Part shown: positions 17,316-34,995 of the stretch, in pieces | Layout: every line of letters begins with the position of its first letter | Position numbering within the stretch: the stretch's first letter is position 1 | Assembly: GCA_947565305.1 (NCBI GenBank) | Contig: CANOFO010000002.1 | Coordinates: forward strand, 3,039 to 67,038 | Length of the DNA: 64,000 nucleotides | DNA from: an uncultured Lachnospiraceae bacterium | GTDB lineage: Bacteria; Bacillota; Clostridia; Lachnospirales; Lachnospiraceae | Reading direction: 5' to 3' | Program-made: the position numbers and the translations under genes | The notes under the pieces: generated by a model | What the model was told of the DNA's origin: nothing | Database searches by the model: none | What the model saw: the letters and a program-made list of their open reading frames with translations, nothing else

Positions 17316-18335
17316 CTAACAGCTAATTTTCAGCAATGTCGTCTGTCCATGAATCCTGATATCCGCAGAATTTGCCGGAACAAATACACAGTCCCCATGA
17401 AAGAAATTTATCATCTCCCCCCTATTCCAGTTCAAGACCCCGCAGCCCTCTACACACAAAAGAATCTGAAACGAATTCTCCGCCTGGGAAATTTCCACTA
17501 CCTCTCCCCGATGCCTTGTGCTTATCATCATGCGCTCCACCTGAAAATAGCGGCAGCGGCATAAGAATTCTGTGGCATACCCCCTCTTAAATTTCAGCAC
17601 ACGCATCGGCTGCCGCAAATCCCGGCTTGATTTCAGGCAAGCCACCTCCAATGCTTTCTCAATGTGGAGTTCCCGCTGTTTTCCCATTTTATCGGTCCTG
17701 CCATAGTCATACAGACGGTAAGTGATATTGGAATTTTCCTGAATTTCTGCCACCAGGCTTCCCGCCCCCAGGGAATGCACCTGCCCGGGCGGGATAAAGA
17801 ACACATCATCCTTCTGGATACGGACTTTCTGCAGATATTTTTCAATATCTCCTGCCATAATGCTGTTCCTTACCTGTTCTTTTTCCATATCATGGCAGAA
17901 ACCATATACCAGCTTGGCATCTTTCGCCGCATCCAGTACATACCACATCTCCGTTTTTCCCAATGAACCATTTTCATGCACTCTGGCATAGTCATCACTC
18001 GGGTGGACCTGCACAGAAAGATCTTGTCTGGCATCAATAAACTTAATCAGGCAAGGCAATTCTCCACGCGGATTTGCATACTTTCCCATATATTCCGGAT
18101 GCTCGATTAAGACCTGCGCTAAATTCTGTCCGGCATATTCGCCGGAAGCCACCATACTGATTCCGTCAGGATGCGTGGAACATTCCCAGGTTTCAGCCAA
18201 CGGCTGCATGGCAAGGTCTTTGCATAATTCAAGGTTCAGCCTGCTGCCTCCCCAGAGATAGTCTTTGCCCACAGGCTTCAAGAGAAATGGAGCTGCCTCT
18301 TTATTCCCATTCAAATTTCTGTTTGTCATGGACAC
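17316..18335 (-). CDS. manA: Class I mannose-6-phosphate isomerase
   Basis: DYLWGG, ETWECSTHPDG, KFIDARQDLSVQVHP, GKTEMWY, EIQENSNITYRLYDYGR. Confidence 0.92.
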   Translation of the reverse strand: MSMTNRNLNGNKEAAPFLLKPVGKDYLWGGSRLNLELCKDLAMQPLAETWECSTHPDGISMVASGEYAGQNLAQVLIEHPEYMGKYANPRGELPCLIKFIDARQDLSVQVHPSDDYARVHENGSLGKTEMWYVLDAAKDAKLVYGFCHDMEKEQVRNSIMAGDIEKYLQKVRIQKDDVFFIPPGQVHSLGAGSLVAEIQENSNITYRLYDYGRTDKMGKQRELHIEKALEVACLKSSRDLRQPMRVLKFKRGYATEFLCRCRYFQVERMMISTRHRGEVVEISQAENSFQILLCVEGCGVLNWNRGEMINFFHGDCVFVPANSADIRIHGQTTLLKISC

Positions 18336-19614
18336 TGATCTCCTTACCCAACTGCACCTCCAAAATCTTTAGAACCGTACTGGCTATCACAGTATGGCGG
18401 CAGCCAGCCTGCATGGTAATGACATCCCCGGCAGTTACTATCTGTTCCATACCATCTACAATCACCTTGCCCTCGCCGGAAATAATGCTCCACACCTCAT
18501 CCCGCCGCTCATGGCTATGGTAATTCATCTTCTCGCCTGCATTCAGCGTCACCTTAATCGTCAGGCTGTTCTCTTCTATATCGAGAATGCGAAAACTTCC
18601 CCAGGATTTCTCTGCATAGCGGATGGGCCTGTCTAACTTTTCCACATAAGGCTTCATAAAACTGGACTGCGCTTTATCCGAGACCAGGATGCCATCTGGA
18701 CCGGCGGAAACTACGATGTCTTTGAGCCCCATGCACAGCACCGGAATATCCAGTTCATTGATGACATGGACATTTTCACAAGATTCATCCAGCATTGCAT
18801 CACCAACGGTAAACTTGCTCATAGTATCCGTCAGCGTATTCCAGGTGCCCAAATCCTTCCACGCCCCACCGTAACGCACTACCTGAATATTAGGCTCATG
18901 TTCTGCCACCGCATAATCAAAACTGATTTTATCCAGACTTTCATATTTGGCATATAAATCTGCATAATCCTCAAATTCAATCAATTCATGCGCTTTATCC
19001 AGGACATATTTTAATTTATAGGCAAACACGCCGCCGTTCCATAACGCGCCCTCTGCAATGTATCTTTTTGCCGTCTCCATATCCGGCTTTTCCTTAAAGG
19101 TCTTAACCGAGGAAATTTCCCCCTTATCCTGTGGGATAATATAGCCATATTTCTCACTGGGGTAGGTGGGTTCAATTCCCATCAGCACCAAATTAGCCTC
19201 CCCCTTTGCCGCCTGCTGCGCCAACCGCCCTAATGTCTCAAAATAACTGTCCTCCACATAGGGGTCTATCGGGCATACAATTACGGCTTCCTCCTCCTGC
19301 ACCTTCCTCACGTCATGGAGATATGAGGTCGCTAAAGCAATAGCCGGAAACGTGTCTCTGCGGCATGATTCTAAGCTAATCCCCACCTGTTCCCCCAATT
19401 GGCTGCGGATTATTGAGGACTGCGACTTGGATGTCGCTACCGTCACTGTGGAATTGGGCGCCGCCTTTTGAATCTGTCTGTACACCCGCTGCAACATGGA
19501 TTCCGCTTCCCCCTCTTCCCCCTCGAAAAATTTGATAAACTGTTTGGAGCGGACGTCATTGGACAGGGGCCACAAACGTTTCCCCGAACCGCCTGACAGC
19601 AATATGATATTCAT
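18301..19614 (-). CDS. manC: Mannose-1-phosphate guanylyltransferase with C-terminal cupin
   Basis: ILLSGGSGKRLWPLS, KQF, YGYI, FKEKPD, SFDYAV, WKDLGTW, EKSWG. Confidence 0.92.
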   Translation of the reverse strand: MNIILLSGGSGKRLWPLSNDVRSKQFIKFFEGEEGEAESMLQRVYRQIQKAAPNSTVTVATSKSQSSIIRSQLGEQVGISLESCRRDTFPAIALATSYLHDVRKVQEEEAVIVCPIDPYVEDSYFETLGRLAQQAAKGEANLVLMGIEPTYPSEKYGYIIPQDKGEISSVKTFKEKPDMETAKRYIAEGALWNGGVFAYKLKYVLDKAHELIEFEDYADLYAKYESLDKISFDYAVAEHEPNIQVVRYGGAWKDLGTWNTLTDTMSKFTVGDAMLDESCENVHVINELDIPVLCMGLKDIVVSAGPDGILVSDKAQSSFMKPYVEKLDRPIRYAEKSWGSFRILDIEENSLTIKVTLNAGEKMNYHSHERRDEVWSIISGEGKVIVDGMEQIVTAGDVITMQAGCRHTVIASTVLKILEVQLGKEISVHDKQKFEWE

Positions 19615-19672
19615 CTCTTAACCACTCTTTCCTTTCTGTGCTTTCCCATTCTTTTTACCCGGGAAACACTGA

Positions 19673-20605
19673 TTAAAGCATTTCCCTGGAACTCCACCAC
19701 TGATATGTATTTCGCACTGCCTCTTGAAAAGTAGTCCTGGCATACCATCCCAGGTCATGGATGCGCTGTGAATCCAGGCACATATGCTGCCTACCTTCCG
19801 GCTTGCCCGAATCAAACACCACTTCTCCTGGATAGTTTACCACTTCTTTGATTGTCATTGCCGCTTCGCGTATCGTAATCTCTCCACCACTGCCGACATT
19901 ATACAGAAACTCGTCTTTGGCATGGTTCATGACAAAGATGCATGCCTCCGCCAAATCCTGAGAGTACAGAAATTCGCGACAAGCATTACCTGTTCCCCAC
20001 ACAACTACCTGAGATTCATGATTTTCTTTTGCCAAATGAAAGCGCTCTATCAGCGCCGGAATCACCCCGGCTTTGTTGCTTCCCATGGGCGCATGTTCCC
20101 CAAAAAAATTACAGGGTATCACAGTTATCGCCGGAAAAGCATATTGCCGCCTGTAATATTCACATAATTTTGCACCCGCCAGCTTCGCCAGCGTATAGGG
20201 AGCATCGATACCCTGCAAATCGATTCTGCCGATATCCTCCTCGCGAAAAACCTCACAATCGCTTTGAGGATAAAGCAGAATGCTGCCTATGTTCAGAAAT
20301 CCCTTAACCTGGCAACGGCAGGCTGCCTCCAAAACATTCATAGCCATCCTCAGGTTGCAGTTAAGCATATCCAAAGGATATTCACGCTTAAACTCTATAC
20401 CTCCAACCAGACCGGCTGCAAAAAATACATACTCTGGCTGCTCACGTTCAAAAAAAGACATGGTATCCGCCCAATTTTCCAAGTCCAGTTCCGAATGGGA
20501 ACGGACAATAATATTATCATACCCTTGCTCTTTTAACTTTTTTAAAATGGCAGAGCCAGCCATCCCGCTGTGCCCAGCCACATATATTCTCGCATGTTTC
20601 TCCAT
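19673..20605 (-). CDS. GDP-L-fucose synthase/ColC-family SDR lacking the epimerase Cys/His pair (probably reductase only)
   Basis: YVAGHSGMAGSA, AAGLVGGI, PYTLAK, VIPALI, VVWGTG..REFL, KPEG; GSSCIYP appears as GSILLYP and SHVIP as AGVIP. Confidence 0.85.
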   Translation of the reverse strand: MEKHARIYVAGHSGMAGSAILKKLKEQGYDNIIVRSHSELDLENWADTMSFFEREQPEYVFFAAGLVGGIEFKREYPLDMLNCNLRMAMNVLEAACRCQVKGFLNIGSILLYPQSDCEVFREEDIGRIDLQGIDAPYTLAKLAGAKLCEYYRRQYAFPAITVIPCNFFGEHAPMGSNKAGVIPALIERFHLAKENHESQVVVWGTGNACREFLYSQDLAEACIFVMNHAKDEFLYNVGSGGEITIREAAMTIKEVVNYPGEVVFDSGKPEGRQHMCLDSQRIHDLGWYARTTFQEAVRNTYQWWSSREML

Positions 20606-20608
20606 CGG

Positions 20609-21781
20609 CTAAACAAGCCCTTTCATAATCGTTTCCATAGTCTCTATAAAATAATCTATCTTGTCGTTGATGATTGTCGGATGGTTGCCTATGTAAAACC
20701 CGCTGTCATGTATCACGTCCGCATTCGTCAACGGCTGCGGTATGCTGTAATCCATAAATGCAATCGCCTTATTCCTCATGAAATTGCCAGCAAGAATCGG
20801 CCTGGTCTCGATACCTGCCTTTTCCAGTTCCCCGACCACCTGATTGCGCTTTGCGGCAAATCCATCTTCCAGTATCATGCCAAAGCCATACCATGAAGAT
20901 TTCCCTACTTCTGACTGCAGTCGAATCCCCGGGATTCCTTTTATTTTTTCAGACAGATAGGCAGCGTTTTCTCTCCTGTTTTTTATAATCTGGTCAAGTT
21001 TTTTTATCTGACGGCAGCCAATTGCCCCCTCCATATCTAAGGGACGTACATTAAATCCGGGCACGATAAAGTTAAATTTCTCATAAAATGGATTTTCACT
21101 GGCTTCGTTAATCACGCTGTCCTGGGGAAGATTCCGTGTCCAGCCGTGCGCCCTAATGCAAAGCATATACTCATACAATTCACGGTCATCTGTCACTGCT
21201 ATACCGCCTTCCATTGTACACAGATGATGGGCAAAAAAAGTAGAAAACGTTCCCAGCATCCCTATCGTCCCCAACTGCCTGCCCTCATACTCCGCACCCA
21301 TAGCCTCGCAATTGTCTTCCATGAGGATAATATGTTCCCTCTCACAGATTTGGGTCAACTCAGCAAATTTATTGGCATTCCCCAAGAGATTCACAGCAAC
21401 AATTAACTTCGTATTGTTCGTGACTGCCTCCTGGACTTTGGAAACATCCATGTTAAAGGTATCCGCCTCAACGTCCACAAACACCAATTTCAGCCCAAAC
21501 TGCACCAATGGAAAATAGGTGGTGCTCCAGGAGACAGCCGGGACGATTACCTCATCCCCTGCATGAAGCTTTCCTGAATAGACAAGGGCTGCAACTGCAA
21601 CCAGATTTGCACTGGAACCCGAATTAACCATCACCGCATATTTGCTGCCAAACTTTAAGGCAAACTCTTTTTCATATTCCGCAACATGCTTGCCCATCGT
21701 ATACATGTCGCTTTTTATCACCTCATTGATTGCTTCCAATTCTTCTTCATCCCAGGATGACTGGCAAAGTCCGTACTTCAC
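20609..21781 (-). CDS. colD: GDP-4-keto-6-deoxy-D-mannose 3-dehydratase (PLP-dependent)
   Basis: SSWD, YAVMVNSGSSANL, VPAVSWSTTY, EDNCEAMGA, STFFAHHLCTMEGG (His replaces the PLP Lys), IRAHGWTRNLP, PGFNVRP; closely follows E. coli ColD as I recall it. Confidence 0.88.
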   Translation of the reverse strand: MKYGLCQSSWDEEELEAINEVIKSDMYTMGKHVAEYEKEFALKFGSKYAVMVNSGSSANLVAVAALVYSGKLHAGDEVIVPAVSWSTTYFPLVQFGLKLVFVDVEADTFNMDVSKVQEAVTNNTKLIVAVNLLGNANKFAELTQICEREHIILMEDNCEAMGAEYEGRQLGTIGMLGTFSTFFAHHLCTMEGGIAVTDDRELYEYMLCIRAHGWTRNLPQDSVINEASENPFYEKFNFIVPGFNVRPLDMEGAIGCRQIKKLDQIIKNRRENAAYLSEKIKGIPGIRLQSEVGKSSWYGFGMILEDGFAAKRNQVVGELEKAGIETRPILAGNFMRNKAIAFMDYSIPQPLTNADVIHDSGFYIGNHPTIINDKIDYFIETMETIMKGLV

Positions 21782-22782
21782 TGTTCTCCCTCCATTTCTT
21801 TATATGTTTTCATGTACCATTCATAAATTTCCGGCAAACCCTGGTCCAGGGAAATTTCCGCCTGATACCCTGTCAGTTGATAGAGTTTATCTGTGCAGGG
21901 GCAGCGGCGGAGCACACAGCCTTCCGGGGCTGGTTCCACCTTTACCTGTGGATTACTGCCAGCAATGGTTAGCAGCTTTTTCAACAAATCAATAATCTTG
22001 ATTTCCTCATCACTCTTGCCGATATGCACAATCTCGCCCTGACAGCGGTCCGACAGCATCACCGCCTCCGTTGCGCGGACGCCGTCTTTCACATCACAGA
22101 ATGCCCGCGTCTCCTCCCCTCCATAAATCGTAAAAGGATTTTCACCGTCAAAAATTCGTTTTATAAATTCCGGCAGTACATGGTCAAATCCCATCCTCGG
22201 TCCATAGATGTTATGATAGCGGATAATTTTTACAGGCACATGGTTCACTCTCCCATAGTTGGCGGCAATAATCTCACCAATCAACTTGCTTCCGCCATAA
22301 GACCAACGCGGATTAAGCACGTTATCTATTGTCAGCGGAATATCCTCTTTGGTCGGGATATACTCTGCATGTTCGTCCAGATAGCAATTGATTGTGCCCG
22401 CATACGTTTCTGATGAGGAAGAATACAGGAAACTCCCGCAATTCTCTGATGTACACCACTCCAACATATTCATCAAAGTCAGGATATTTGCCCTGAGCAC
22501 GTCATAGGGCCTTTGATAAAAGTTTTTCGTCCCATTGATAGCAGCCAGATGATACACATAATCATATTTCCCAGACAACTGGCGATAAAATTTTTTCTCC
22601 GTCATGTCTGCCTGAATAAAAATTACATTTGCTTTCTCAATCAAGGACTGGAACATTCCATCGGAAGAACCACGTGCAAAATTATCAATCACGGTGACTT
22701 CCATTCCTTCCTGCCCTGACAGGTAATCTGCCAGATGGTAACCTATAAAGCCGCTTCCTCCTGTAACTATCGCTCTCTTCAT
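21778..22782 (-). CDS. Extended SDR, UDP-uronate decarboxylase/epimerase-like
   Basis: TGGSGFIG, HLAAINGT, SSSSETY, PRWSYGGSK, RYHNIYGPRM, ETRAFC. Confidence 0.75.
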   Translation of the reverse strand: MKRAIVTGGSGFIGYHLADYLSGQEGMEVTVIDNFARGSSDGMFQSLIEKANVIFIQADMTEKKFYRQLSGKYDYVYHLAAINGTKNFYQRPYDVLRANILTLMNMLEWCTSENCGSFLYSSSSETYAGTINCYLDEHAEYIPTKEDIPLTIDNVLNPRWSYGGSKLIGEIIAANYGRVNHVPVKIIRYHNIYGPRMGFDHVLPEFIKRIFDGENPFTIYGGEETRAFCDVKDGVRATEAVMLSDRCQGEIVHIGKSDEEIKIIDLLKKLLTIAGSNPQVKVEPAPEGCVLRRCPCTDKLYQLTGYQAEISLDQGLPEIYEWYMKTYKEMEGEQ

Positions 22783-24074
22783 ATCTTCTCCTCTATCAGC
22801 ATATTGCCAATTGTGTCTCTCTCTTCTCTTTCCTTTAATTCATCACAGCAGTCCCAGATGTCCAATATCCTGACCCCCTCCATTCCCTGTGTAAAATGAA
22901 AGGTATGGTACCTGCTGCAGTTATTCAGTGCCAGCATCCCGGCAATTCCCTCACAGGCTTCGTTTAGGTCATCATACACTTCCCCCAAATTCAATTCCTG
23001 CAGTTCCTCACGCCTGGCAACAAAATCATGTAATCTCAATTTATAGCCTTTGTCCTTCAGCTTCCTTGCGATATATACGGAACTGGACCCCCTCAAATCA
23101 GAAGTCTCCGGCACGCCTTTGAATGCCATCCCAGTAAGGAGCAGCTCTTTCTCCTGAGCCGGCGCGCCGATTTTGCGCTCCACCCAGCAGACAACATCGT
23201 CTTCCAGCGATTCGTTAAAGCGCCTTGCCGCATATATGAAATCTTTGCTCTTTCCCTCTTGCATATTGTTCATCAGGATATAGGCATCTTTCTCCAGACA
23301 TGGTCCAGCCACAAATCCAGGGCTGGCAATGTTGCTCCTTGCGTAACCTTCGTTGGCATTTCTGATGACGCTGATGCCATCGAGCCCAAATGTCTGTGCT
23401 GCCACATTAAGCACGTTGCCTAGGGCAAAATTCATATCCCGGTAGATATTGCAGTATAACTTAATGAGTTCTGCTTCCTCCAGACTCTCCGCTTCTATCA
23501 CCTTGGAAGTAATCTGCTTAAAAAGCTTATGTGACATTTTGACTGCCTGTGGGGAATTGCCGCTGACAACCTGCGGAAGGCTTGTCAGTTCCACAAGCGC
23601 TTTTCCCTCAACCGTACGTTCCGGGCACATGGCAATCATCGGGGCACACCCCGAATCTTCTGCCATCTCCTGCAGCCTTGGCAATACCACGTTCCTGCTG
23701 GTGCCAACAGATACCGTGCTGCGCAGGATAACCAGTTCACGTCCGCTATATACGTTCCTGAACGCCTTCAAAGAGGACACGATATAATCAAAATTCGGCT
23801 CTTTTGTCTGCCCAATGAGAGGCGTCCCTACTGTAATCATAAAGGCGTCAAATTGTACATCCCGTGGAAACTCTTCCACACAGAAAAATTTCCGCCCCAT
23901 ACATTCCTTGATTTTATCGTCTAAGCCAGGTTCAAAAAAATGTGCTTGACCACCTGCCAAAGACTGTTTTATCCGCTTCTCCTTTTCTACGCCATACACG
24001 GTAATGCCTTTATCCGCTGCGGCAATGGCAAAGGTCAGGCCCACATAGCCAAGCCCAATTATTCCTATCGTCAT
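22779..24074 (-). CDS. Nucleotide-sugar 6-dehydrogenase (UDP-Glc/ManNAc dehydrogenase family)
   Basis: IGLGYVG, ITVGTP, RSTV, CPER, AELIKL, GPCLEKD, GMAFK, DLRGS. Confidence 0.9.
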   Translation of the reverse strand: MTIGIIGLGYVGLTFAIAAADKGITVYGVEKEKRIKQSLAGGQAHFFEPGLDDKIKECMGRKFFCVEEFPRDVQFDAFMITVGTPLIGQTKEPNFDYIVSSLKAFRNVYSGRELVILRSTVSVGTSRNVVLPRLQEMAEDSGCAPMIAMCPERTVEGKALVELTSLPQVVSGNSPQAVKMSHKLFKQITSKVIEAESLEEAELIKLYCNIYRDMNFALGNVLNVAAQTFGLDGISVIRNANEGYARSNIASPGFVAGPCLEKDAYILMNNMQEGKSKDFIYAARRFNESLEDDVVCWVERKIGAPAQEKELLLTGMAFKGVPETSDLRGSSSVYIARKLKDKGYKLRLHDFVARREELQELNLGEVYDDLNEACEGIAGMLALNNCSRYHTFHFTQGMEGVRILDIWDCCDELKEREERDTIGNMLIEEKI

Positions 24075-24098
24075 TTCCTACGCCTCTTTTCTTCGGTT

Positions 24099-25295
24099 TT
24101 ATCTTTGTGATAAGAGTTTCTTCGATAATGAAATCACACGGTTCACCACGGTATCTGAGTTGAAATGCTCCCACTCGCCCCAGCGTCCAACGCCAAATAT
24201 ATGATGCTTTTCCATCTCCTGTAAGATAGCGCTTATCATCACTTTCTTCTTTACGGTATTGCATGGGTATGCGTATTGGTTCACATATTTCCAGCCCCCT
24301 GCCGGCACAACCCTTTCCATATTCGTCTCATAGAATCCGCCATGTCCGCCCTCGATAAAGTTATTGCGGTAAAACCTTCTGTGATAGGGCAGCTCATGGT
24401 TCGGATAAAATACCCAATGGGCATTGTCCTCCCTGTCCTCTTCAAAGTACCTGACTTCCAGCGAGGTGTATGGCAGCTCTTTACAGTAATCCGTAACCTG
24501 GGAATCACAGCCTGTAATCTCGTCAAACTCCGTCCAGGGAATCGTATTGATGATATATTCTGCTGAATATGTATCGTTAACGGTTTTCGTCTTACAGTCT
24601 AATTTATTGGCTTGCACATGGTACTCAATCTTATCTTTCACACGTTCTGCCATGCGATTCCAGACCTCGCCGTAACCAGCCGTCTTGGGATAATAAAATG
24701 CGCCGTGGGACGGATATTTGCCATGCATTTTCTTTTCCAGACAGCTCAGGAGCGTATCTTCAAAATTGACCGTTGGCAATTTATCCAGCCAATAAGTGCC
24801 AAGTTCGTCAAAATATTTGCCAAACATCTTTTTGTTGTAGGGAACCAAATACTCCCCAGCAATTTTATCTCCTAGTTTCCAGTGCGCCCATTCTTCAAAA
24901 TTCTCCGGCATAGGCGTATTCAAGTTGGCTCCGGCATAGGCAATTGATTTCAGATATTCCACCTGGTCTTCCAACGGCAGCTGGTATATCTGGGCTTCCA
25001 TCGGATAATCTATTACTGCCCTGCCCAAATCAATCTTTCGGATACAGGGATAATAATTCCATTCCTCCAGGGGCATAAACGATAATATGTATTCCTGACC
25101 TTCGCTCTTTCTGGCATCTAAGAAATGACCTCCGCCAAAATCAAGCGGAAAACCCCCTACTTCCTCACTGCGGCATAATCCCCCGGCGTTTTCTTCCTTC
25201 TCCAACACCAGAAAATTTTCTTCTCCTCCGTCTTTCAGGCAGTTTGCCATCGTTACACCGGCTGGTCCGGCTCCTAAAATCAAATACTTCAGCAT
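24099..25295 (-). CDS. FAD-dependent oxidoreductase, UDP-galactopyranose mutase-like
   Basis: ILGAGPAG, GGLCRS, DFGGGHF, PYNKKM, FYYPKTAG, YAYP, GRWGEWEHFNSD. Confidence 0.7.
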   Translation of the reverse strand: MLKYLILGAGPAGVTMANCLKDGGEENFLVLEKEENAGGLCRSEEVGGFPLDFGGGHFLDARKSEGQEYILSFMPLEEWNYYPCIRKIDLGRAVIDYPMEAQIYQLPLEDQVEYLKSIAYAGANLNTPMPENFEEWAHWKLGDKIAGEYLVPYNKKMFGKYFDELGTYWLDKLPTVNFEDTLLSCLEKKMHGKYPSHGAFYYPKTAGYGEVWNRMAERVKDKIEYHVQANKLDCKTKTVNDTYSAEYIINTIPWTEFDEITGCDSQVTDYCKELPYTSLEVRYFEEDREDNAHWVFYPNHELPYHRRFYRNNFIEGGHGGFYETNMERVVPAGGWKYVNQYAYPCNTVKKKVMISAILQEMEKHHIFGVGRWGEWEHFNSDTVVNRVISLSKKLLSQR

Positions 25296-25325
25296 TTTTT
25301 TCTCCTTTGAACAATATTTAATATA

Positions 25326-26948
25326 TTAGATTTTTCGACAAAAAATAATTGTATTACTAACATCTTCCATTAAAAAATTCAATTTATCCTTTGCTTCTTT
25401 TTCACTCCCGCATTTTACCCCAGCATAACATTTTATCTTCGGCTCTGTCCCGGAAGGACGGATACAGCACCACGCATCAGCCTCCAGTTCAAAGTACAAT
25501 ACATTGGAACGCGGCAGACCTGTGACCGCGGCTTTACCTGTCAGGCAATTTACAATCTTATCCTCACGGTAATCACGAAACTGCATAACTTTAAATCCTC
25601 CTATCTGCTCGGGAAGATTGGTGCGTATATGTTCCATCATTGCTGCAATTTTTTCTTTTCCCTCCTGCCCCTTTAGGGTGACAGCAGTAAGCCCCTCTTT
25701 AAAGTAGCCGTATCGTTGACAAAGATGTTCCATCTGTTCACAAAGCGTCATGTTCCGGCTCCTGCACCACGCAGCGACTTCACACAATGCCATCGCTGCA
25801 GCCACGGCGTCTTTATCTCTGGCGTACGTCCCCGGCAGACAGCCATAACTCTCCTCAGAGCCAAACAGATATTCATAACTGTGCTCCTGCTCAAACTGCT
25901 TAATCTGCTCCCCGATATATTTAAAACCAGTGAGCGTCTCTATCAATTCCACATGATACTCTTTTGTAATTTTCCTTGCCATTTTCCCGGAAACAATGGT
26001 AGTTATAACCGCACCATTCTCCGGCAAGATACCTAAGGCTTTTTTTTGGGAAAGGATGTATTCTAAAATCAGCATCCCGGACATATTGCCAGTAAAACTT
26101 TTGTAACTTCCAGTCTTTGTATCCTTAGCATATATCCCCAGACGGTCCGCATCGGGGTCCGTAGCAAGCACAATGTCTGCCTCCACTTCTTCTGCCAGCT
26201 TTAATGCAAGGTCAAAGGCATGTTTATCCTCAGGATTCGGATAAGAAACCGTAGGGAAGTTTCCGTCCGGCAATTCCTGCTCCTTTACCACGTAAACCTG
26301 TGCAAAACCTAATTCCTGCAAAATCCTCCTCACTGGAAGATTCCCTGTCCCATGCAATGGCGTATAGACAATCTTCAGCTTTGATGCCTGTTCCCTGATT
26401 ATCTGAGGACGGAGCGCTAATTTTTTTATAGCTTCAAAATACCGGTCTTCTGTCTCAGGTGGAATAACCTGATATAATCCTCTTTCTTCTGCTTCTTCCC
26501 GGGATATGGACTTAATCTGAGCAAAATCTGTAACATCATTTACCCTGGCAATAATTTCTTTATCCCTGGGCGCCGTAATCTGTCCACCATCCTCCCAATA
26601 AACTTTATATCCGTTATACTCGGGAGGATTATGGCTTGCTGTCACTACAATGCCAGCCATACATCCAAGTTCTCGAATTGCAAAAGATAGCATCGGGGTC
26701 GGGTGCGGCTGGGAAAATATATAGACTTTAATCTTGTTTGCCGCCAGACAGCAAGCTGCCGTTTCCGCAAACTCAGAAGACCTATTCCTTGTATCATAAG
26801 CAATGGCGACCCCCTTCTCTCCGCCTTTCTGTTCTATAATATAATTGGCAAGCCCCTGCGTTGCTTTTTGGACTGTGCCGCTGTTCATCTGGTCTTCTCC
26901 TTCGCCCATAATACCACGGAGTCCGCCAGTGCCAAATTCCAATCCCAT
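25326..26948 (-). CDS. pgm: Phosphoglucomutase/phosphomannomutase
   Basis: FGTGGLRG, TASHNP (phospho-Ser), DPDADR, GFKYIG, EESYG, RPSGTEPKIK. Confidence 0.93.
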   Translation of the reverse strand: MGLEFGTGGLRGIMGEGEDQMNSGTVQKATQGLANYIIEQKGGEKGVAIAYDTRNRSSEFAETAACCLAANKIKVYIFSQPHPTPMLSFAIRELGCMAGIVVTASHNPPEYNGYKVYWEDGGQITAPRDKEIIARVNDVTDFAQIKSISREEAEERGLYQVIPPETEDRYFEAIKKLALRPQIIREQASKLKIVYTPLHGTGNLPVRRILQELGFAQVYVVKEQELPDGNFPTVSYPNPEDKHAFDLALKLAEEVEADIVLATDPDADRLGIYAKDTKTGSYKSFTGNMSGMLILEYILSQKKALGILPENGAVITTIVSGKMARKITKEYHVELIETLTGFKYIGEQIKQFEQEHSYEYLFGSEESYGCLPGTYARDKDAVAAAMALCEVAAWCRSRNMTLCEQMEHLCQRYGYFKEGLTAVTLKGQEGKEKIAAMMEHIRTNLPEQIGGFKVMQFRDYREDKIVNCLTGKAAVTGLPRSNVLYFELEADAWCCIRPSGTEPKIKCYAGVKCGSEKEAKDKLNFLMEDVSNTIIFCRKI

Positions 26949-27027
26949 TCGGATTCCTCCTTACTGTTTATATATTCCAATAAACATTTCTAAGACGCTA
27001 AAATCACGTTTTAGAAACTAGGAACAC

Positions 27028-28299
27028 TTATTCCACAAACGAATTTATGGTCATATAATCAGTTATACCCATTTTTTCTAATAAATCGACAATTTCTCCT
27101 TCATATCTTTCTCCAACCGCCACTACTACCCCGGAATTGTCACCAAACTCTACTTCACTAAGTTCGTACACTGGCAAGCCAAAAAACTCCGTCTTCCCAT
27201 GTTCCCTCTTACTGACAAGGAATCCGTCTGGTCTTCGATTTTCCCCACCTGCAATCCGAAAGCATTTCTCTCCATAATAACCTGCTCCATAAAAATAGAC
27301 CTTTTGAAATCTTTCCATAAATGGTACTAAATTCTTTTTTAGGTACACTTGCTGGGCTAGATCCCTGAAAGAATTAATTCCCAAATCTTTTAAATTGGCA
27401 TATGTCGTTCGCAATGTATTTTTTATTTGTAATATATATCTTTGTGCAAACATATCCGACATTACATAACCTGTTTCAAAACCCGCATCCTGTGCCACAT
27501 AACCTAAAACACGCTCTATTGCATGACTAATAGTTCCATCCCATGGCAACGGTTCTTCTTGAAAATGCTCATACTTCCAATCCTTTGCCAGCAATTTCTC
27601 CAGTGCAGCAAACTTGCACCAAAACACCGTTCCCAAAGTAACAGAAGGATACTTTGGGGAAATATTGCAATTTAGTTTTAACATTTCTGCTAAATTTACG
27701 GTATTTTCATAATTCGCCCCCCATGTATCGACATAAGCATGATTCAATCTCCTTCCTGCCATTTCCGGCGGCACTAACAAACCAACCGTTTTATTTTTCA
27801 CTAATAAATCTAATACATTATATATGTACTCTTCTGAAATCAAAGTGTTATCCCACATATTTCTAATCCATAATTGCGTATCAGCAGAAAGTTTTTCATT
27901 TTTTTCTTTTTTATCGTGTACAAAACATACATACCTGTATTGACAAACCTTTTCCCGGAAAGCTACCAGTAATGCACTAAGGTCTCTTCCCCTGTTTTCC
28001 TTCATAATAATATTACAGTGTTGTAAATTCCATTGCTGCAGATAATTTTCCAATTTCTGTTTCATCTCCCCTGAAGACACAGAAATAAATACATTTATAC
28101 CAACTGGTATATTTTTTATATATGCAAGATAATCCTCCACGCTGTCTTCATAATACAAATGAATAAAAATGCCTACTTCATTTAATTGGAAAGACTGGGG
28201 AATATCTTCTCTAATCTTTGAGGATAAAACAAAATTCAGTTCTTTCTCTTTCACTATTTCAAAAACATTTTCTAAAAAACTATCCTTTGATACAATCAT
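27028..28299 (-). CDS. Rhamnan synthesis F (RgpF)-family protein with C-terminal Rossmann-like module
   Basis: IFIHLYY, ENRGRDLSAL, CFVHDKK, GTVFWC, DGTISHAIER; FYGAGYYG. Confidence 0.82.
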   Translation of the reverse strand: MIVSKDSFLENVFEIVKEKELNFVLSSKIREDIPQSFQLNEVGIFIHLYYEDSVEDYLAYIKNIPVGINVFISVSSGEMKQKLENYLQQWNLQHCNIIMKENRGRDLSALLVAFREKVCQYRYVCFVHDKKEKNEKLSADTQLWIRNMWDNTLISEEYIYNVLDLLVKNKTVGLLVPPEMAGRRLNHAYVDTWGANYENTVNLAEMLKLNCNISPKYPSVTLGTVFWCKFAALEKLLAKDWKYEHFQEEPLPWDGTISHAIERVLGYVAQDAGFETGYVMSDMFAQRYILQIKNTLRTTYANLKDLGINSFRDLAQQVYLKKNLVPFMERFQKVYFYGAGYYGEKCFRIAGGENRRPDGFLVSKREHGKTEFFGLPVYELSEVEFGDNSGVVVAVGERYEGEIVDLLEKMGITDYMTINSFVE

Positions 28300-29501
28300 A
28301 TATTTGACTCCAAAAGCTCTTGTATAATTTCCTCAAATAAATAAACTTTAATATCTTTAAATTTCATTTCCAATGTTTGTCTGATTTCCTGACTCCCAAA
28401 AGCTGCCGTTACTACAACAGCTTCTGTTTGCTGCAAGTATTCTTGCGCTATTTTATCATCTAATTTCACAATCGGCAAATCCTTAACAATCATCCTATCT
28501 GCCCTCTGGTCAATACCGCATATGACATTTATCCCTACACTACCAAGTTCGCGAAAAACTCTCTCACCAATACATCCAAATCCATAAATTACAAGCTGTT
28601 CCATACCCCGGCTTTGGAAAAATTCCACGAATGATATTCCTCTGCTTTCCAGATATGCCCAACGATCCAATAACTCATGAATATACTTTTCCTTGGCAGA
28701 TTTCTCCTTTTCTCTCTCCTCTTTTCTCTTCCTCCACAACTCCACTTCTTCCAACTGCGTTATCTGTATACCAAAAAGCTGCGCATACTCTTTCATGATA
28801 CTAACCGCCTCTTTGATAGATTTATCTATTATTGCAGACTGGTTTGACACATTCCCCTCATGTCCCACATGAACATACAAATGTTCCATATTAATTGTAA
28901 ACTTTTTTCCCTCAAACAGCATAAGCATCCACAGCAAAAAGTCATCCGCCCCATTGCTTTTCATCGTCCTGGTCAGCCAAATCTCTGGAATAGCACTTTT
29001 GTTCAACAACACCTGTCCCGGAGAAACAATCTGATTTTCCTGAGACAAATAGTTCTCTAAATCCGTTACTTTTTCCAGTTCTTCCAAAGACTTATATATA
29101 TGTGACTTTACATCCTTATCACGCTTTGTTAAATATCCATTGCACACTACTGCCTCGCAATTACCAATCTTTCTTCTCTGGCTCACAAAATAATCTTCTG
29201 ATATCTTGTCATCCTGATCCAAAAAAATAAGATAACTCCCTCTTGCCAGCTTAGCCCCTGACTGCCTTGCGCCATGAATCCCCTGATTTTCTTCCAAGTT
29301 GCATACAATAACTTCTCCCCAAGTTCTAACGCCTCCCTTGACAGGCAATTTATTTCCAGGCTCATCATTAACGAAAATAAGTTCGCAATCCACCCCCATC
29401 TGCTTCTTCATGTTTATAAAATTGACTTCTGCTATCTGCAATAAATATGGCAAATATCGATTTCCTTGATATAAAGTTACAATTAGCGATGTATCTATCA
29501 T
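28296..29501 (-). CDS. GT2 glycosyltransferase with C-terminal Rossmann-like module
   Basis: IFVNDEP, NQGIHGAR, FLDQDD, SPGQVL, GADDFLLW; IYGFGCIG; start moved to ATG 29501 after GAGG. Confidence 0.85.
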   Translation of the reverse strand: MIDTSLIVTLYQGNRYLPYLLQIAEVNFINMKKQMGVDCELIFVNDEPGNKLPVKGGVRTWGEVIVCNLEENQGIHGARQSGAKLARGSYLIFLDQDDKISEDYFVSQRRKIGNCEAVVCNGYLTKRDKDVKSHIYKSLEELEKVTDLENYLSQENQIVSPGQVLLNKSAIPEIWLTRTMKSNGADDFLLWMLMLFEGKKFTINMEHLYVHVGHEGNVSNQSAIIDKSIKEAVSIMKEYAQLFGIQITQLEEVELWRKRKEEREKEKSAKEKYIHELLDRWAYLESRGISFVEFFQSRGMEQLVIYGFGCIGERVFRELGSVGINVICGIDQRADRMIVKDLPIVKLDDKIAQEYLQQTEAVVVTAAFGSQEIRQTLEMKFKDIKVYLFEEIIQELLESNI

Positions 29502-29520
29502 GCTCTTCCTCTCTTGTCGT

Positions 29521-30456
29521 TCATCCGACATCCGATTTCCCTGAAAAACCAGTTCCGTTCCAGCTTCCAAGCATTCGGGATATTCCCTCAGCCATAGTAA
29601 TTCCACATTCCCAGCCTATCCGTTCCTTTATCTTACTACAGTCCAGCACATTATTCTTTACCTGCACACCATAAGCCGGCTTCAATGTCTGATGCAATTC
29701 AATTCCCAACATTGCAGATATAATCTCACATATTTCAAGAATGCTCGTTCCCTCACTGCTTCCTACATTATAGACCCCCTCCTCTATATCCAGAAGCAAA
29801 CATCGGTAAATGCACTCACAAAGGTCGTCAATATAAAGATAGTCCCTAAGGCAATTTCCATCCCCCCAAATTTCAACGTTTTTTCCCAACAGACCACTTG
29901 CCAAAAAAGTAGCTATAATTCCCTGCCCATTGAACGGCTGCTGATAAGGACCATATGGATTTGCTATCCTCAGGCAAACCGTAGGTATTTTGCTCGTCCT
30001 GGAGATAAAACTCAGATAATTTTCTATCATCAGCTTTTGTATCCCATATTCAGAAATAGGCTGTGCCTCCTCCAACTCACTGATGGGAAAAATATTTTTA
30101 TTCCCATATACCGCCCCGCCAGAAGAAGCGAAAAAAATTTTCTTTACCTTACATTCCACACATATGTCAATAAGCAACATCATATCTACAATATTACTTT
30201 GGAAAAGTTCTCGCTGATTTCTTATCGCAGAAACCGGCACACCCTTCCACTTTAGCAAAATTATATAATCATCCTCTTGTACTATACCTCTATAGAGCTC
30301 TGAATCTTCTCCTACATCCTGATAGTAAACAACACCCTTAATTTCTTGCTTTGGCTTCCTGTTATCACATGCAACAACCTGCACTTGTCTACTGTTCAAA
30401 TACTGCAGTAAATTTGTGCCGATGAAACCATTACTTCCAATCACTACAACCCGCAT
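29521..30456 (-). CDS. NAD-dependent epimerase/dehydratase
   Basis: GSNGFIG, SSGGAVYG, YGIQK, RIANPYGP, RDYLYIDD. Confidence 0.88.
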   Translation of the reverse strand: MRVVVIGSNGFIGTNLLQYLNSRQVQVVACDNRKPKQEIKGVVYYQDVGEDSELYRGIVQEDDYIILLKWKGVPVSAIRNQRELFQSNIVDMMLLIDICVECKVKKIFFASSGGAVYGNKNIFPISELEEAQPISEYGIQKLMIENYLSFISRTSKIPTVCLRIANPYGPYQQPFNGQGIIATFLASGLLGKNVEIWGDGNCLRDYLYIDDLCECIYRCLLLDIEEGVYNVGSSEGTSILEICEIISAMLGIELHQTLKPAYGVQVKNNVLDCSKIKERIGWECGITMAEGISRMLGSWNGTGFSGKSDVG

Positions 30457-30468
30457 TATTTTTATCCT

Positions 30469-31854
30469 CTATTTGCATTTCTCCTGCCACAGTCCTTCCA
30501 GGCGTTCTTCCATAATCTCTTCACTGAAATTTTGCTCATAAATCGCTCTCGCACACCTTCCTATACTATTTAGCTTATCCTTGTGTTTAACAATCCACTT
30601 TATTTGTTCTGAAAGTTCCATTTCATCCCCAAAAACAAAACCATTTTGCCCTGATTTAACAAATTCCACTTGTCCAACATTTTCGGACAAAATGCAAACC
30701 TTACCATACATCATCGCCTGAGTAACAACTACAGGCATGGGATCGTCTCTGGACGGACAGACTAAAACATCAATTTCCTTATATTTCGCCGCCAGTTCTT
30801 CCTGAGATACTTCACCTTCAACCCTTACATATTTCACTTGCTTTATCAGCGGCTTTAGTCCCTCCCAATATTCCTTTTCTGCCTCTATTGCTGTCCCAAT
30901 TATCAATATTTCTATTTTTTCCTGATACTCCAAAGGCAGTTTTAAAATCACCTTTAATAAGGTATCCTGTGCTTTTCTATTACTAATAGCGCCTATCATG
31001 CCAAACGTCACTCTTTCACGCACTGACATCTGGCTTTCATCCGCAAGCAAATCCTCTTCCGGAATACAATATTGCAGCACCTGTGCATTTTTCTCTTTAC
31101 AATGTGCCAGAAATGCTCTTCTGGCATATTCACCTCCACAGAATACAGATACGTTTTTCCCACAATCCAAAACTTCTGCCTCCTGATATCCGCAATCTGC
31201 CTCATGAATCCACCAAATGACAGGCGTTTTCAAATCCTTGTAGCTTTCAAGCAATCCTTTCAGCCCGAAAGTACACATTATAACTAAATCAAATTGCCTG
31301 ATATATTCCTTTTGTATATCACCTTCCACAAATATCCAGTTAGGCACATAGTCTATATGGTTTATCTCCAATTCTTTTCTCAGAGGACCATCACTCATTC
31401 CGGCATATAACACTGAAATTCCCATCTTCTTCATTACCTTCGCCATGTTCATCAATGCTATCGGAGCCCCCGTATAAGATAATTCATGAGAAATCAATAA
31501 CGCCCTTTTATTATCATCTTTGAGCCAATCGCTAAACATACACTTATTGCCGTCACTGTATATCCAAACTGGTTTCTTAGTTATATTTCCAAGCTGCAGA
31601 TAATTAAGAATCATATTTTCTGGAATGCCCAATCCTGTCAGCTGATGTTTCATCTCATCATAAAATTTACTCAGCACCAATATCACATCAACATCCGTAG
31701 CCTTTAACTGACTTGGCAATATAATCTTAATTCCATCAATAGTTGTTCCAGCTTTCTTGACATTATTATCTAAAAAGTATACTACCTGTTTTTTGTCTAT
31801 ATATTTCCAATAACGGTAAAATATTCTCCCCGTTCCAAAAATAGCAACCCTCAT
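30469..31854 (-). CDS. GT4 glycosyltransferase with N-terminal Rossmann-like module
   Basis: IFGTG; SHELSYTGAP, WWIHE, RKAQD, CPSRDDPMPVVVTQAM. Confidence 0.87.
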   Translation of the reverse strand: MRVAIFGTGRIFYRYWKYIDKKQVVYFLDNNVKKAGTTIDGIKIILPSQLKATDVDVILVLSKFYDEMKHQLTGLGIPENMILNYLQLGNITKKPVWIYSDGNKCMFSDWLKDDNKRALLISHELSYTGAPIALMNMAKVMKKMGISVLYAGMSDGPLRKELEINHIDYVPNWIFVEGDIQKEYIRQFDLVIMCTFGLKGLLESYKDLKTPVIWWIHEADCGYQEAEVLDCGKNVSVFCGGEYARRAFLAHCKEKNAQVLQYCIPEEDLLADESQMSVRERVTFGMIGAISNRKAQDTLLKVILKLPLEYQEKIEILIIGTAIEAEKEYWEGLKPLIKQVKYVRVEGEVSQEELAAKYKEIDVLVCPSRDDPMPVVVTQAMMYGKVCILSENVGQVEFVKSGQNGFVFGDEMELSEQIKWIVKHKDKLNSIGRCARAIYEQNFSEEIMEERLEGLWQEKCK

Positions 31855-31875
31855 CCATAAACCTCCAAATTCATT

Positions 31876-33033
31876 TTAATAATTTCCGTCTAATATATAA
31901 TCCTCCAGTGCCGCATGGTTCCCGGCTGTCGCCCAAGGAAAATCTTCCATTTGCGCCATATTGCAATACCGACATGCCGGTATCGGTTTTGCCAGCAATT
32001 CCATGGCATTCCATACGTTGAAATCCGCTTTATGGATATCGAAGTAATCCTTTCCTTCCTGCAGCTGATACCCGGTATGGAACTGATGATTCATTTTATC
32101 AAATGCAATCACGCCGGAACACATCGCCAACTTTCCCCGATACAATTCATGGCAAGAGGAAGTGAAGCAATGCTGGAAATTATATGCCCCATCATTGCTG
32201 TCTGAGAGGGAATAAAATTTAGAGAAATCGCTGCGCTCTAAAAAGCAATAGGGGATCTCTTCCCGGCGCAGGACAGATTCTATCTCCTGCTGCATCCGAT
32301 ACACCGGCTCATAACCCGAAATATGGATGACAACCCGCAAATCCCGAAACAGCTGATACATCTCCTGTGCTAATCTGGGCAGGAGCAAGCCATTGGTGCA
32401 TACATCGATTTCGGAATCCTCAAACAGTTCCCTTGCAGCTCTTAATATCTCTGCCAGTTCCTGATGCAGCAGAGGTTCCCCGCCCAAAATCCGAATCCAG
32501 GGGATGTCCTCAAACAGTTCTCTCATACGCGCCAAATCCCTGATAACCGTTTTCGCTGGAATCTCTGTACGGTCACCGGCAGGATTGCACAAAAACAGAC
32601 AGCCCTTACAGTTGAGGTTGCAGTCATTGGTGATGGGCAATTCCACATAAGGTAATGTAGGTTTGCTGTCTGAAAACCGGATTTTGCGAATCCGCTGCGG
32701 CAAAAATTCACCTTTATCCAGCAATGGCATATGTTTCTTACCCGGAACATCATGGAGCATATATATATTGGAAATGTGATGTCTTTGCAGAAATTCCACC
32801 ATCTCACAGACAGCTTTCTGCCTTCCCGCCGCAATCACAACCATATCGGTCTGCTCTTTATATTTCTCCATATATTCCTCAGGACGATATACCGGAATAT
32901 TTCTAATCTGCCTTTGCTGTGCATTTGCATCCAGAAATCCTTGCACGATTACATCAGGCTTCTTCTGCAGCAATTCCTCCAACAGCCATTCCCCGGCTTT
33001 CCCCGCCCCATATATCGCTAATTTTTTTGCCAT
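31876..33033 (-). CDS. Radical SAM protein with N-terminal Rossmann-like module and C-terminal auxiliary Cys cluster
   Basis: IYGAGKAG; CNLNCKGC; LGGEPLLH; TNG; C....C...GKLAMC...CRYC. Confidence 0.88.
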   Translation of the reverse strand: MAKKLAIYGAGKAGEWLLEELLQKKPDVIVQGFLDANAQQRQIRNIPVYRPEEYMEKYKEQTDMVVIAAGRQKAVCEMVEFLQRHHISNIYMLHDVPGKKHMPLLDKGEFLPQRIRKIRFSDSKPTLPYVELPITNDCNLNCKGCLFLCNPAGDRTEIPAKTVIRDLARMRELFEDIPWIRILGGEPLLHQELAEILRAARELFEDSEIDVCTNGLLLPRLAQEMYQLFRDLRVVIHISGYEPVYRMQQEIESVLRREEIPYCFLERSDFSKFYSLSDSNDGAYNFQHCFTSSCHELYRGKLAMCSGVIAFDKMNHQFHTGYQLQEGKDYFDIHKADFNVWNAMELLAKPIPACRYCNMAQMEDFPWATAGNHAALEDYILDGNY

Positions 33034-33072
33034 CGCCAAACTCCTTTATCCTAAAATCACTTCCTGTACCCA

Positions 33073-34227
33073 TCAGCGCTTCTCCTGGGCTGCCGGTTTT
33101 CCTGTTACCGGGTTGTCCATATAAAACCCACGGCAGTGCCTACACAGATTGGTGTAACCCTTGTCATTATATCCCAGACGGAACTCTACCAGTTCTTTCT
33201 TACGCTCGGGTGCAAAACTCCTGAGGTCAAAGACCTCCTCTTTCTGCTGCTCATTGATTCCAGCCACCGTCGCATAACCGTCATAATTGCAGCTATATAA
33301 TTTACCGTCCCTCAACTCCTGCCAGGTCTGGGCACAATTATCAAAGTGTGTGGTCAGCTGCTCCTCCGTCCACATGCTGTGGTCTGTCACTGTAGGCGCC
33401 AGGTCAATCCACGCCTCTGCTTTATTTATCTCATACTTAATATGATACTTTTCTAACTTTTTAATCAGCCGCGCAAAATCCTCTTTGGAATCTGGCACCG
33501 CCTCACGGTAATCATCCACCGTTATCTCAAAATCAATCCCTGACAGACGCTGCAGCAATTCATCCTTAGGCACAACCGTGCCGTTAGTCACTGTGCGCAA
33601 GGTCAATATCTGATGTCGGTATTTTGTACCGAGATACTCTATCACCTCAGCAAAATGCGGATACAAAAACGGTTCGCCTCCGCTGACATGGAAAAGCATC
33701 ACATAATCCACACAGTTGAAAAACAAATCAATATCTGCCTTGACCTGCTCTATACTTCTGACATCCGGCTTTGCAGCATAAGGGTTAAAGTTCAGGCACA
33801 GTTCACAATTGAGGTTACAGGCTGTACTGGGCAGCATGGAAATATTGGTAAAATATACTTTATCGTATTTATAGACGTACCATGCAGACATGAATGGTTC
33901 AATCTTAAAGTAATCTTCTTCCTCCACATAACCTGCTTCCTGCAGCTGTTTCACCACTGCGCTCCTGGAAAACTGGGAAACTGCCAAAATAATGCCGATA
34001 TTCCTGTCCCATTTTATATCCTGAAGTTTATAAATCATCTGATTGTAGAGTTCCTGCCCTTGCTTGCGAGAATTATTGTCAATAAATCCGGCTACCGAAA
34101 TCTCATCTTTCATTATCTGATACAGCTGCCTCCCATAATCCCCCGCACCAAAAATATAAAACAGGTCTTTCTCCTGCATTTTACGGTAGACATGGTCCAG
34201 TTCATGCCCCTTTTTCATCCACTTCAT
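33073..34227 (-). CDS. Radical SAM protein with N-terminal Rossmann-like module and C-terminal auxiliary Cys cluster
   Basis: IFGAGDYG; CNLNCELC; SGGEPF; VTNG; GKLYSC...CRHC. Confidence 0.88.
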   Translation of the reverse strand: MKWMKKGHELDHVYRKMQEKDLFYIFGAGDYGRQLYQIMKDEISVAGFIDNNSRKQGQELYNQMIYKLQDIKWDRNIGIILAVSQFSRSAVVKQLQEAGYVEEEDYFKIEPFMSAWYVYKYDKVYFTNISMLPSTACNLNCELCLNFNPYAAKPDVRSIEQVKADIDLFFNCVDYVMLFHVSGGEPFLYPHFAEVIEYLGTKYRHQILTLRTVTNGTVVPKDELLQRLSGIDFEITVDDYREAVPDSKEDFARLIKKLEKYHIKYEINKAEAWIDLAPTVTDHSMWTEEQLTTHFDNCAQTWQELRDGKLYSCNYDGYATVAGINEQQKEEVFDLRSFAPERKKELVEFRLGYNDKGYTNLCRHCRGFYMDNPVTGKPAAQEKR

Positions 34228-34283
34228 CTATCTGCTCCGTTCTTTACCATAATCTCTACCAATTTACAGTAACATTCAATAAG

Positions 34284-34326
34284 AAAAAATAGTCCATGGC
34301 AGAAATAAACCTTCCCTACCATGAAC
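34284..34326 (-). terminator. Intrinsic terminator closing the short sigma28 transcript
   Basis: GTTCATGGTAGGG...TTCTGCCATGGAC stem (with G-U pairs) followed by TATTTTTT. Confidence 0.72.
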
Positions 34327-34401
34327 AATTCCCATAAGCTATTTGTTATACATATTCTCCTACATCCTTGTATTTCATTTATCATCCATGATATTATTTT
34401 C
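34284..34401 (-). ncRNA. Candidate CsrA-binding small RNA or regulatory leader (~120 nt)
   Basis: Lies between a sigma28 promoter and a terminator; hairpins TATCA-TGGA-TGATA and TACA-AGGA-TGTA; six GGA motifs; only a 4-codon ORF (MYNK). Confidence 0.5.
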
Positions 34402-34408
34402 TCTTATT

Positions 34409-34435
34409 ATATCGGTATTTTTTTCAGATTCCTTA
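34409..34435 (-). promoter_or_regulatory. Sigma28 (SigD/FliA)-type promoter TAAG-15-ACCGATAT
   Basis: Close to the consensus TAAA-N15-GCCGATAT. Confidence 0.72.
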
Positions 34436-34486
34436 CCTTTTTATCCATTGCCCTGTGAAACGGCGGAACATTTGTCATAGAAACAC

Positions 34487-34520
34487 AAAACACCCCAGAA
34501 CTGCCACTCTGGGGTGTTTT
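34487..34520. terminator. Bidirectional intrinsic terminator
   Basis: Perfect 13-bp inverted repeat AAAACACCCCAGA / TCTGGGGTGTTTT with an 8-nt loop. Confidence 0.85.
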
Positions 34521-34536
34521 ATTCCAATTACGGCTA

Positions 34537-34666: not shown

Positions 34667-34995
34667 CTACCCTACGCCCTGCCAAGTCGCATTGAAAAGC
34701 TGCCTGATAAACCCTGCCATTAAATCCCAGAAACCATTTACAGAGGCTTCCTGCATGGGTGTGTCATATTCATCAAGCAGAATAATTACTTTCTTGTTAT
34801 GATAACGGCTTAAGAACTCAGAGAGCATGTGTAGTGCAAAGGCGGTATCTGCTTCATCCATGTTCTTCGAAATCCGGTCAAAATACTCCTTCGCCTGACA
34901 GCTCAGTATATCGCCATCTTCCACCATTCCTTGATAAATTTTGTTTTATCTACATAAAAATAATTATTTGCTATAACCGTCCCAAAGTCCTGTTT
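34667..34995 (-). pseudogene. Remnant of an AAA-ATPase-like/PD-(D/E)XK (PDDEXK_9-associated) gene
   Basis: QDF...NNYFYVDKTKFIKEWW, then in another frame KKVIILLDEYDTPMQEA..NGFW; internally deleted and truncated. Confidence 0.75.

Follow-up and report, generated by a model that had tools for sequence, protein, structure and literature searches.

On the minus strand of the window, the 64-kb stretch of DNA analyzed here, we identified a compact unit that runs from a sigma28-type promoter through two GGA-loop hairpins to an intrinsic terminator ahead of a 14-gene glycan operon. Comparison with copies in related genomes indicates that the unit represents a real, conserved and uncatalogued family of regulatory RNAs. 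According to our model, to which we assign a probability slightly below 60%, the unit is a transcription attenuator of the downstream operon that is switched by CsrA. A CsrA-controlled attenuator for a radical SAM operon was one option of an earlier sequence-only reading of this DNA, and it is the option best supported here, with the operon extending to 14 glycan genes; the antiterminator helix and the switching mechanism are new relative to that reading.

Anatomy and genomic setting

The features, in window coordinates, are:

34432..34435, minus strand: sigma28-type -35 element TAAG (a TAA-type -35 is retained in homologs)
34409..34416, minus strand: sigma28-type -10 element ACCGATAT, 15-nt spacer after TAAG
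34380..34393, minus strand: hairpin 1, UAUCA-UGGA-UGAUA, predicted CsrA site 1 and anti-antiterminator
34361..34373, minus strand: hairpin 2, UACA-AGGA-UGUA, exact SELEX CsrA consensus
34339..34361, minus strand: AGGAG and mini-ORF MYNK, not conserved
34317..34329, minus strand: predicted antiterminator 3' strand, 13 bp with hairpin 1, overlapping the terminator 5' arm
34282..34326, minus strand: intrinsic terminator and T-run (14 pairs, 34326-34292; T6, 34289-34284)
34485..34522, minus strand: upstream intrinsic terminator, 17 pairs
17316..34227, minus strand: predicted regulated operon, 14 genes, gaps of at most 79 nt

The promoter, both hairpins, the AGGAG, the mini-ORF and the T6 terminator claimed in the sequence-only reading were all found at their minus-strand positions, as was the second terminator upstream (34522-34485), which likely insulates the unit from the genes upstream. 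The promoter elements were judged against the sigma28-type consensus given in excerpts of PMC3720852, and transcription would start near 34403. Bases 34393-34381 of hairpin 1 double as the 5' strand of the predicted antiterminator. The claimed exact match to RUACARGGAUGU with GGA in the loop was recovered in hairpin 2 (ATACAAGGATGT at 34373-34362; TACA-AGGA-TGTA stem-loop at 34372-34361), whose site lies 20 nt beyond that of hairpin 1; this SELEX consensus, and a range of 10-63 nt that one CsrA dimer can bridge, are given in the excerpted parts of PMC7652899. The AGGAG (34361-34357) and the mini-ORF (34353-34339) are separated by merely 3 nt and are probably incidental.

The unit folds with z=-3.57 (0/200 shuffles). 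Taken individually, its motifs are weak evidence: the exact RUACARGGAUGU occurs twice genome-wide against about 1.5 expected, and the strict sigma28 pattern nine times against five with a reversed control. Their combination is not due to chance, because genome G016 contains a copy that matches it at 92% identity from the promoter exactly up to the terminator, beside different upstream DNA (BLAST, 61 genomes), and because a model of the promoter and two hairpins recovered copies ending in a terminator that had not been modelled. Directly before the real terminator arm, the window (34340-34330, minus strand) and the copies in G016, G012 and G070 contain a degenerate additional arm, which suggests that a short stretch was duplicated in tandem within this clade.

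The window is part of contig C2 of a genome assembly that is 83% complete. Long ORFs extend from 504 to 61034, nearly all on the minus strand, and 26 scanned proteins of the island included glycosyltransferases, sugar-nucleotide enzymes, LicD and radical SAM proteins. The predicted operon, of which 13 of the 14 genes were covered by the domain scan, encodes two radical SAM proteins, glycosyltransferases, epimerases, RgpF, phosphoglucomutase, UDP-sugar dehydrogenase, DegT aminotransferase and a nucleotidyltransferase, and ends in a hairpin and T-run near 17300, as judged by eye. Pattern scans found no second sigma28 match within the 17-kb operon, and sigmaA-like matches in the block are at chance level (52 vs 43+-6). 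A flagellin-like gene lies directly outside the window start. A lack of csrA had been named in advance as grounds for abandoning a CsrA-binding role; csrA and a fliW-like gene are both present, in a locus ordered flgK-flgL-fliW-csrA-flaG-fliD from translations, and so is fliA.

Two further observations concern the DNA upstream. A broken AAA-ATPase-like remnant (34667-35000, minus strand) lies between a cytidylyltransferase/oxidoreductase gene and the upstream terminator. A second sigma28-like promoter, TAAG-15-AACGATAT (37702-37775, minus strand), precedes a 121-aa ORF (37337-37702) without Pfam or NCBIfam match, and a CAUGGAAG hairpin, possibly a translational CsrA site, spans the start codon of this ORF. 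In G012 and G070, the unit is located directly behind the gene of the 121-aa ORF.

Copies of the family and their contexts

In the BLAST search of 61 genomes, weaker copies were identified in G012, G007 and G006, where the surrounding genes are different, and pattern scans gave further copies in Roseburia, Acetatifactor and Lachnospiraceae records. A covariance model of the promoter and two hairpins only, trained on eight sequences with the terminator unmodelled, matched 7/49 genomes of the own genus, 5/5 handles, and 19/81, 4/101 and 11/27 genomes of three other genera. The 56 model matches comprised 30 copies with an intrinsic terminator (22 genomes), one rewired copy (L094) and 25 without terminator. 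The terminated copies, 19 of which were called by script, four by eye and seven from a held-out genus searched after the antiterminator idea had formed, number up to three per genome and are co-oriented with the next gene in 30/30 cases. Among their next genes, the ones with Pfam matches are of sugar or glycan-island types (LicD, GmhB-like HAD, epimerases, PPDK_N, PIG-L, glycerophosphotransferase, methyltransferases, GDSL and radical SAM among the genes scanned); several have no family. The 25 unterminated matches lie ahead of flagellins (15, two assigned by Pfam and the others by N-terminal likeness), sugar enzymes (three), an unnamed ~200-aa family (two) and other genes (five). We identified csrA in 16/16 genomes tested, taken from outside the seven genomes of the held-out genus, and flagellin in 10/10; eight genomes carry a unit copy on the same contig as csrA, at a distance of 15-68 kb.

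The sequence-only reading had proposed to compare relatives for an intact CDS after the RBS and for covarying hairpins: an internal CDS was found in none of the 30 terminated copies, and covariation was found in the terminator, as described below. The mini-ORF has a counterpart in G016 alone among 23 copies compared; 11 of these 23 have no SD and start codon between hairpin 2 and the T-run, and the remainder encode unrelated peptides. Leader-peptide attenuation was rejected, as the mini-ORF is not conserved. The six GGA motifs reported earlier were all located in the unit (34387, 34367, 34360, 34332, 34315 and 34295), but only the two in the hairpins are conserved among copies, which contain 2-6 each (13 of the 23 copies counted). 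In 28/30 copies the two sites are 19-25 nt apart, inside the bridging range of a single CsrA dimer given in the PMC7652899 excerpts. A reading of the palindromes as DNA operators is disfavoured, since GGA is kept in the loop and the module overlaps the SDs in flagellin leaders.

A family-wide pattern occurred in 9/401 genomes, with one additional terminated copy, and the family is therefore patchy. A GTDB pattern scan gave 41 loci, mostly coding or repeat matches outside Lachnospiraceae, with five terminated Lachnospiraceae loci among the matches listed. Three loci, none of them a terminated copy, were obtained from a metagenome scan, and a plasmid search gave no match to the unit. No Rfam family reached its gathering score in the window, where the best match, CsrC, scored 8.4 bits against 61 and fell on the upstream terminator; in six homolog loci the unit was likewise unmatched, and the sole match was an unrelated L10 leader. 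The GGAM motif was considered for the element and dropped, as it belongs to a paper on a guanidine riboswitch. In the read data, three runs contained small shares. Two read contigs, X1 (192 nt, only guessed to be RNA) and X2 (154 nt), cover the unit at a depth of 2-4; both extend beyond the promoter or terminator and cannot show transcript ends or level, and the read data are uninformative on the unit.

Several related loci were observed. L010 (G007:C3:158992-159079) is a decayed copy in which the promoter and hairpin 1 are deleted, hairpin 2 and the terminator are retained, and the next gene is unrelated. In L094/L038 (G473:C89:17847-17939, minus strand), a sigma28 leader ahead of mreB/mbl-like and flgF-like genes, the GGAUG of hairpin 2 itself forms the terminator 5' arm; with this opposite wiring, CsrA could block termination. 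In L103 (G547:C1:99928-100025, plus strand), a third GGA-loop hairpin replaces the usual terminator 5' arm. Eight loci (L029, L043, L048, L056, L067, L078, L100 and L125) encode an unnamed family of ~195-200 aa starting with MKIGEAQ, preceded by a sigma28 promoter with one or two CsrA-type sites across the SD; the members scanned have no NCBIfam or Pfam match, and the family probably represents a late flagellar gene that has so far escaped description. In L039, a long hairpin is inserted after the CsrA-type sites. Divergent second csrA-like matches precede flagellin genes at a distance of about 200-330 bases (G007:C2:118935, G016:C59:9565, G472:C19/C30/C32 and G407:C45:1673). L075 (G272:C18:265-328, plus strand), with two GGA-loop hairpins of 10 and 13 pairs after CCGATA and no gene nearby, may be a CsrA decoy that is genuinely free-standing.

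Predicted pairing of hairpin 1 with the terminator, and alternative explanations

The terminator 5' arm, RUUCAUGR, is complementary to the UCAUGGAU / CAUGGA CsrA site of hairpin 1. When the transcript was folded as ending before the terminator 3' arm, an antiterminator helix of 13 bp was predicted for the unit with P=0.99. The helix reached P of at least 0.5 in 16/23 copies, compared with 2/119 other terminators of the same genome, and shuffled leaders gave mean values of 0.01-0.27; when both GGA hairpins were summed, this level was reached in 17/23 copies. All seven terminated copies of the held-out genus have the usual arm and hairpin 1, and P was at least 0.5 in four of them. The helix stayed below 0.5 in 6/23 and 3/7 copies, respectively. 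G006 shows no pairing. The terminators of three copies are unrelated to the usual one; in two of these copies, the arm pairs with a GGA-hairpin strand in a different register.

The two arms of the terminator differ in variability: the core UUCAUG of the 5' arm is fixed in 18/23 and then in 7/7 held-out copies, whereas 20 copies of the 3' arm include 11 haplotypes. Across 21 aligned copies, 7/11 terminator pairs were changed on both sides (0/500 shuffles), mostly outside the six pairs shared with the antiterminator. The antiterminator was 97% paired in the same alignment, with two-sided changes in 0/8 pairs and 500/500 shuffles as high. These pair counts are based on 25 sequences reduced to 21, four including the window being dropped because MAFFT misplaced the terminator arm, and the alignments exclude G011, G547 L122 and the three copies whose terminators are of another kind. 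Since the antiterminator strands are nearly invariant and show no two-sided change, support for the helix consists of conservation and prediction, and since the copies are kin, shared ancestry can look like selection. In hairpin 1, the first base of the loop, which must be U for the pairing, is U in 29/30 copies; that of hairpin 2 varies (A 11, G 10, U 8, C 1), even though A was present in 7/8 training sequences. Changing the hairpin-1 loop base in silico lowered P(antiterminator) to 0.06-0.19, and the matching change in the arm restored it to 0.97-0.99. In 19 copies the terminator state is more stable by 0.9-10.7 kcal/mol (7.2 here), and an antiterminator must therefore act kinetically and could be invaded.

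The placement of the copies favours an element acting in cis: terminated copies are repeated at the heads of gene blocks in glycan islands, the distance to the next start codon is at most 62 nt in 14/23 copies (at most 48 nt in 9/23), the terminator-to-gene gap contains no sigmaA-like match in 14/23 copies, including this unit, and the RNA is kept in G012 and G070, where the sigma28 promoter is lost. The gap showed no sigma28 match in any of the 23 copies. The nine gaps with weak sigmaA-like matches temper this argument, and because the island is wholly on one strand, the co-orientation of the copies carries less weight. The two-hairpin module also precedes flagellins and three sugar genes without a terminator, and translational CsrA control of sugar genes thus seems to occur as well.

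An unlikely but credible alternative is a leaky terminator of fixed strength, in which the sigma28 promoter would yield mostly a short CsrA-binding RNA with constant minor read-through at a ratio independent of CsrA. The greater stability of the terminator state and the lack of two-sided covariation in the antiterminator agree with this, and the complementarity of the arm could come from a duplicated hairpin-1 motif that gave rise to the terminator; the fixed 5' arm beside a drifting 3' arm, and the retention of U in hairpin 1 only, would nevertheless be left unexplained. We also consider it very unlikely that the unit is an attenuator of opposite sign, in which CsrA bound to a GGA in the terminator 5' arm would block termination and turn the operon on. 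Many arms do have a GGA near the loop, hairpin 2 is part of the terminator in L094 and the arm of L103 contains a GGA hairpin, but the arm GGA is absent in several copies (e.g., L122, L089 and G006), purine-rich arms are usual, and the conserved pairing involves hairpin 1.

The lead option of the sequence-only reading, a CsrA-sponge sRNA, comes second to the attenuator among the three options of that reading and is in our view rather unlikely. It would be a free-standing, trans-acting RNA made from the sigma28 promoter as a miniature CsrB/RsmZ analogue, with the downstream genes transcribed from promoters of their own. The unit has its own promoter and a strong terminator, conservation is limited to the promoter-to-terminator stretch while the flanks change, and two sites at 20 nt resemble the C. 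jejuni flaA leader, described as a CsrA titrator in excerpts of PMC4894983. Against this reading, the islands multiply copies rather than sites within one RNA, the gaps to the next gene are short and promoter-less, the RNA persists in G012 and G070 despite loss of the sigma28 promoter, the two conserved GGA motifs correspond to one CsrA dimer, and the conserved complementarity would hide site 1 during synthesis. That the unit is a functionless leader orphaned by the deletion of a flagellin-like gene, as had also been put forward, is the least probable explanation: the same architecture is found ahead of flagellins and the ~200-aa family, and the AAA-ATPase remnant lies upstream, yet the 30 copies occur in several genera with an internal CDS in none, and the terminator covaries beyond all 500 shuffles. 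Historically, a flagellin-leader origin is plausible, with the unit maintained since.

A putative CsrA-gated attenuator and its relation to known systems

In the CsrA-switched attenuator favoured here, nascent hairpin 1 would, without CsrA, pair with the terminator 5' arm before the 3' arm emerges, and the antiterminator so formed would allow polymerase to read through into the glycan operon. When free, one CsrA dimer would take both emerging GGA loops and keep hairpin 1 folded as an anti-antiterminator, whereby the terminator would form, an RNA of ~115 nt would be released and the 14-gene operon would be off. Removal of CsrA by FliW would return the leader to the antiterminator state and read-through. 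By analogy with the Hag-FliW-CsrA circuit of Bacillus, CsrA would be free while flagellin accumulates and binds FliW, and would be held by FliW once flagellin is exported; with such a cycle, the sugar genes would thus be transcribed only while flagellin is translated. From the location of the island, the glycan is presumably destined for flagellin. As a side effect, the RNA set free by termination may titrate CsrA, and a sponge role of the terminated RNA is possible in this sense. LoaP-type processive antitermination was rejected as an explanation, a single NusG match without paralog being found in the 83% complete assembly.

Excerpts of PMC4538822 (rplJL/L10(L12)4) and PMC7430163 (pyr/PyrR and trp/TRAP) describe protein-dependent attenuators of B. 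subtilis that are of the anti-antiterminator type. As in these, the unit has three overlapping structures, with a protein on the first predicted to block the antiterminator and permit the intrinsic terminator, and like pyr it recurs in several places within one gene cluster. A leader intrinsic terminator is present upstream of the genes presumed regulated; an antiterminator that overlaps the terminator 5' arm and excludes the CsrA-site hairpin is predicted. The unit differs in its predicted sensor (CsrA), its signal (a flagellin-export checkpoint), its sigma28 promoter and its unrelated sequence, and switching is here a prediction.

The unit is neither a hag-type translational operator nor a member of the CsrB/RsmZ family. 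The B. subtilis hag leader, part of the Hag-FliW-CsrA switch, is likewise a sigma28 leader with two GGA stem-loops, and csrA and fliW lie together in the flagellar locus (PMC7652899, PMC7430163 and PMC13443453, as excerpted). In contrast to the translational control of hag, the sites of the unit precede a terminator and no start codon, and no site covers the SD of a conserved CDS, the non-conserved 4-codon ORF being the one present. The E. coli pgaA leader, in which CsrA unmasks rut sites for Rho-dependent termination (PMC7652899, in part), resembles the model in that a CsrA-remodelled leader would end transcription of a polysaccharide operon, whereas the unit has an intrinsic terminator/antiterminator pair. 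With CsrB, CsrC, RsmY and RsmZ, as outlined in excerpts of the same review, the unit shares the form of a short terminated RNA with GGA-loop hairpins, and with the C. jejuni flaA leader (PMC4894983, in part) two sites about 20 nt apart; unlike the former, it has two conserved sites instead of many, a sigma28 promoter instead of BarA-UvrY control, no Rfam match, and a FliW-type genome. In full-text searches of the open-licence papers of PMC and bioRxiv, we found no description of the element or of a CsrA-gated intrinsic terminator, and the string 'attenuat' has zero occurrences in PMC7652899.

More generally, we suggest tentatively, and with less than even confidence, that a family of CsrA-switched intrinsic attenuators is spreading across the glycosylation islands of Lachnospiraceae, each assembled from flagellin-leader hairpins and a terminator with a 5' arm that is the reverse complement of the CsrA site, and that through them the FliW-CsrA checkpoint would switch flagellin glycan synthesis transcriptionally, each termination freeing a two-site CsrA decoy. 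If attenuator and decoy are read jointly in this way, FliW and an RNA antagonist would cooperate in one Firmicute. The portions of PMC7652899 consulted leave as a question whether FliW and sRNAs co-act in any species. Lachnospiraceae CsrAs function in B. subtilis (PMC13443453, in part), and as the switch is ~115 nt, a test would be cheap; the terminated RNA makes the question of co-action directly testable.

CsrA has been described as regulating translation and as assisting Rho-dependent termination. If true, the proposed switch would represent a new mode of action for this global RNA-binding protein. Flagellin glycosylation may shape how the host perceives Lachnospiraceae flagellins, and the switch, if true, would show how this glycosylation is timed in gut Lachnospiraceae.
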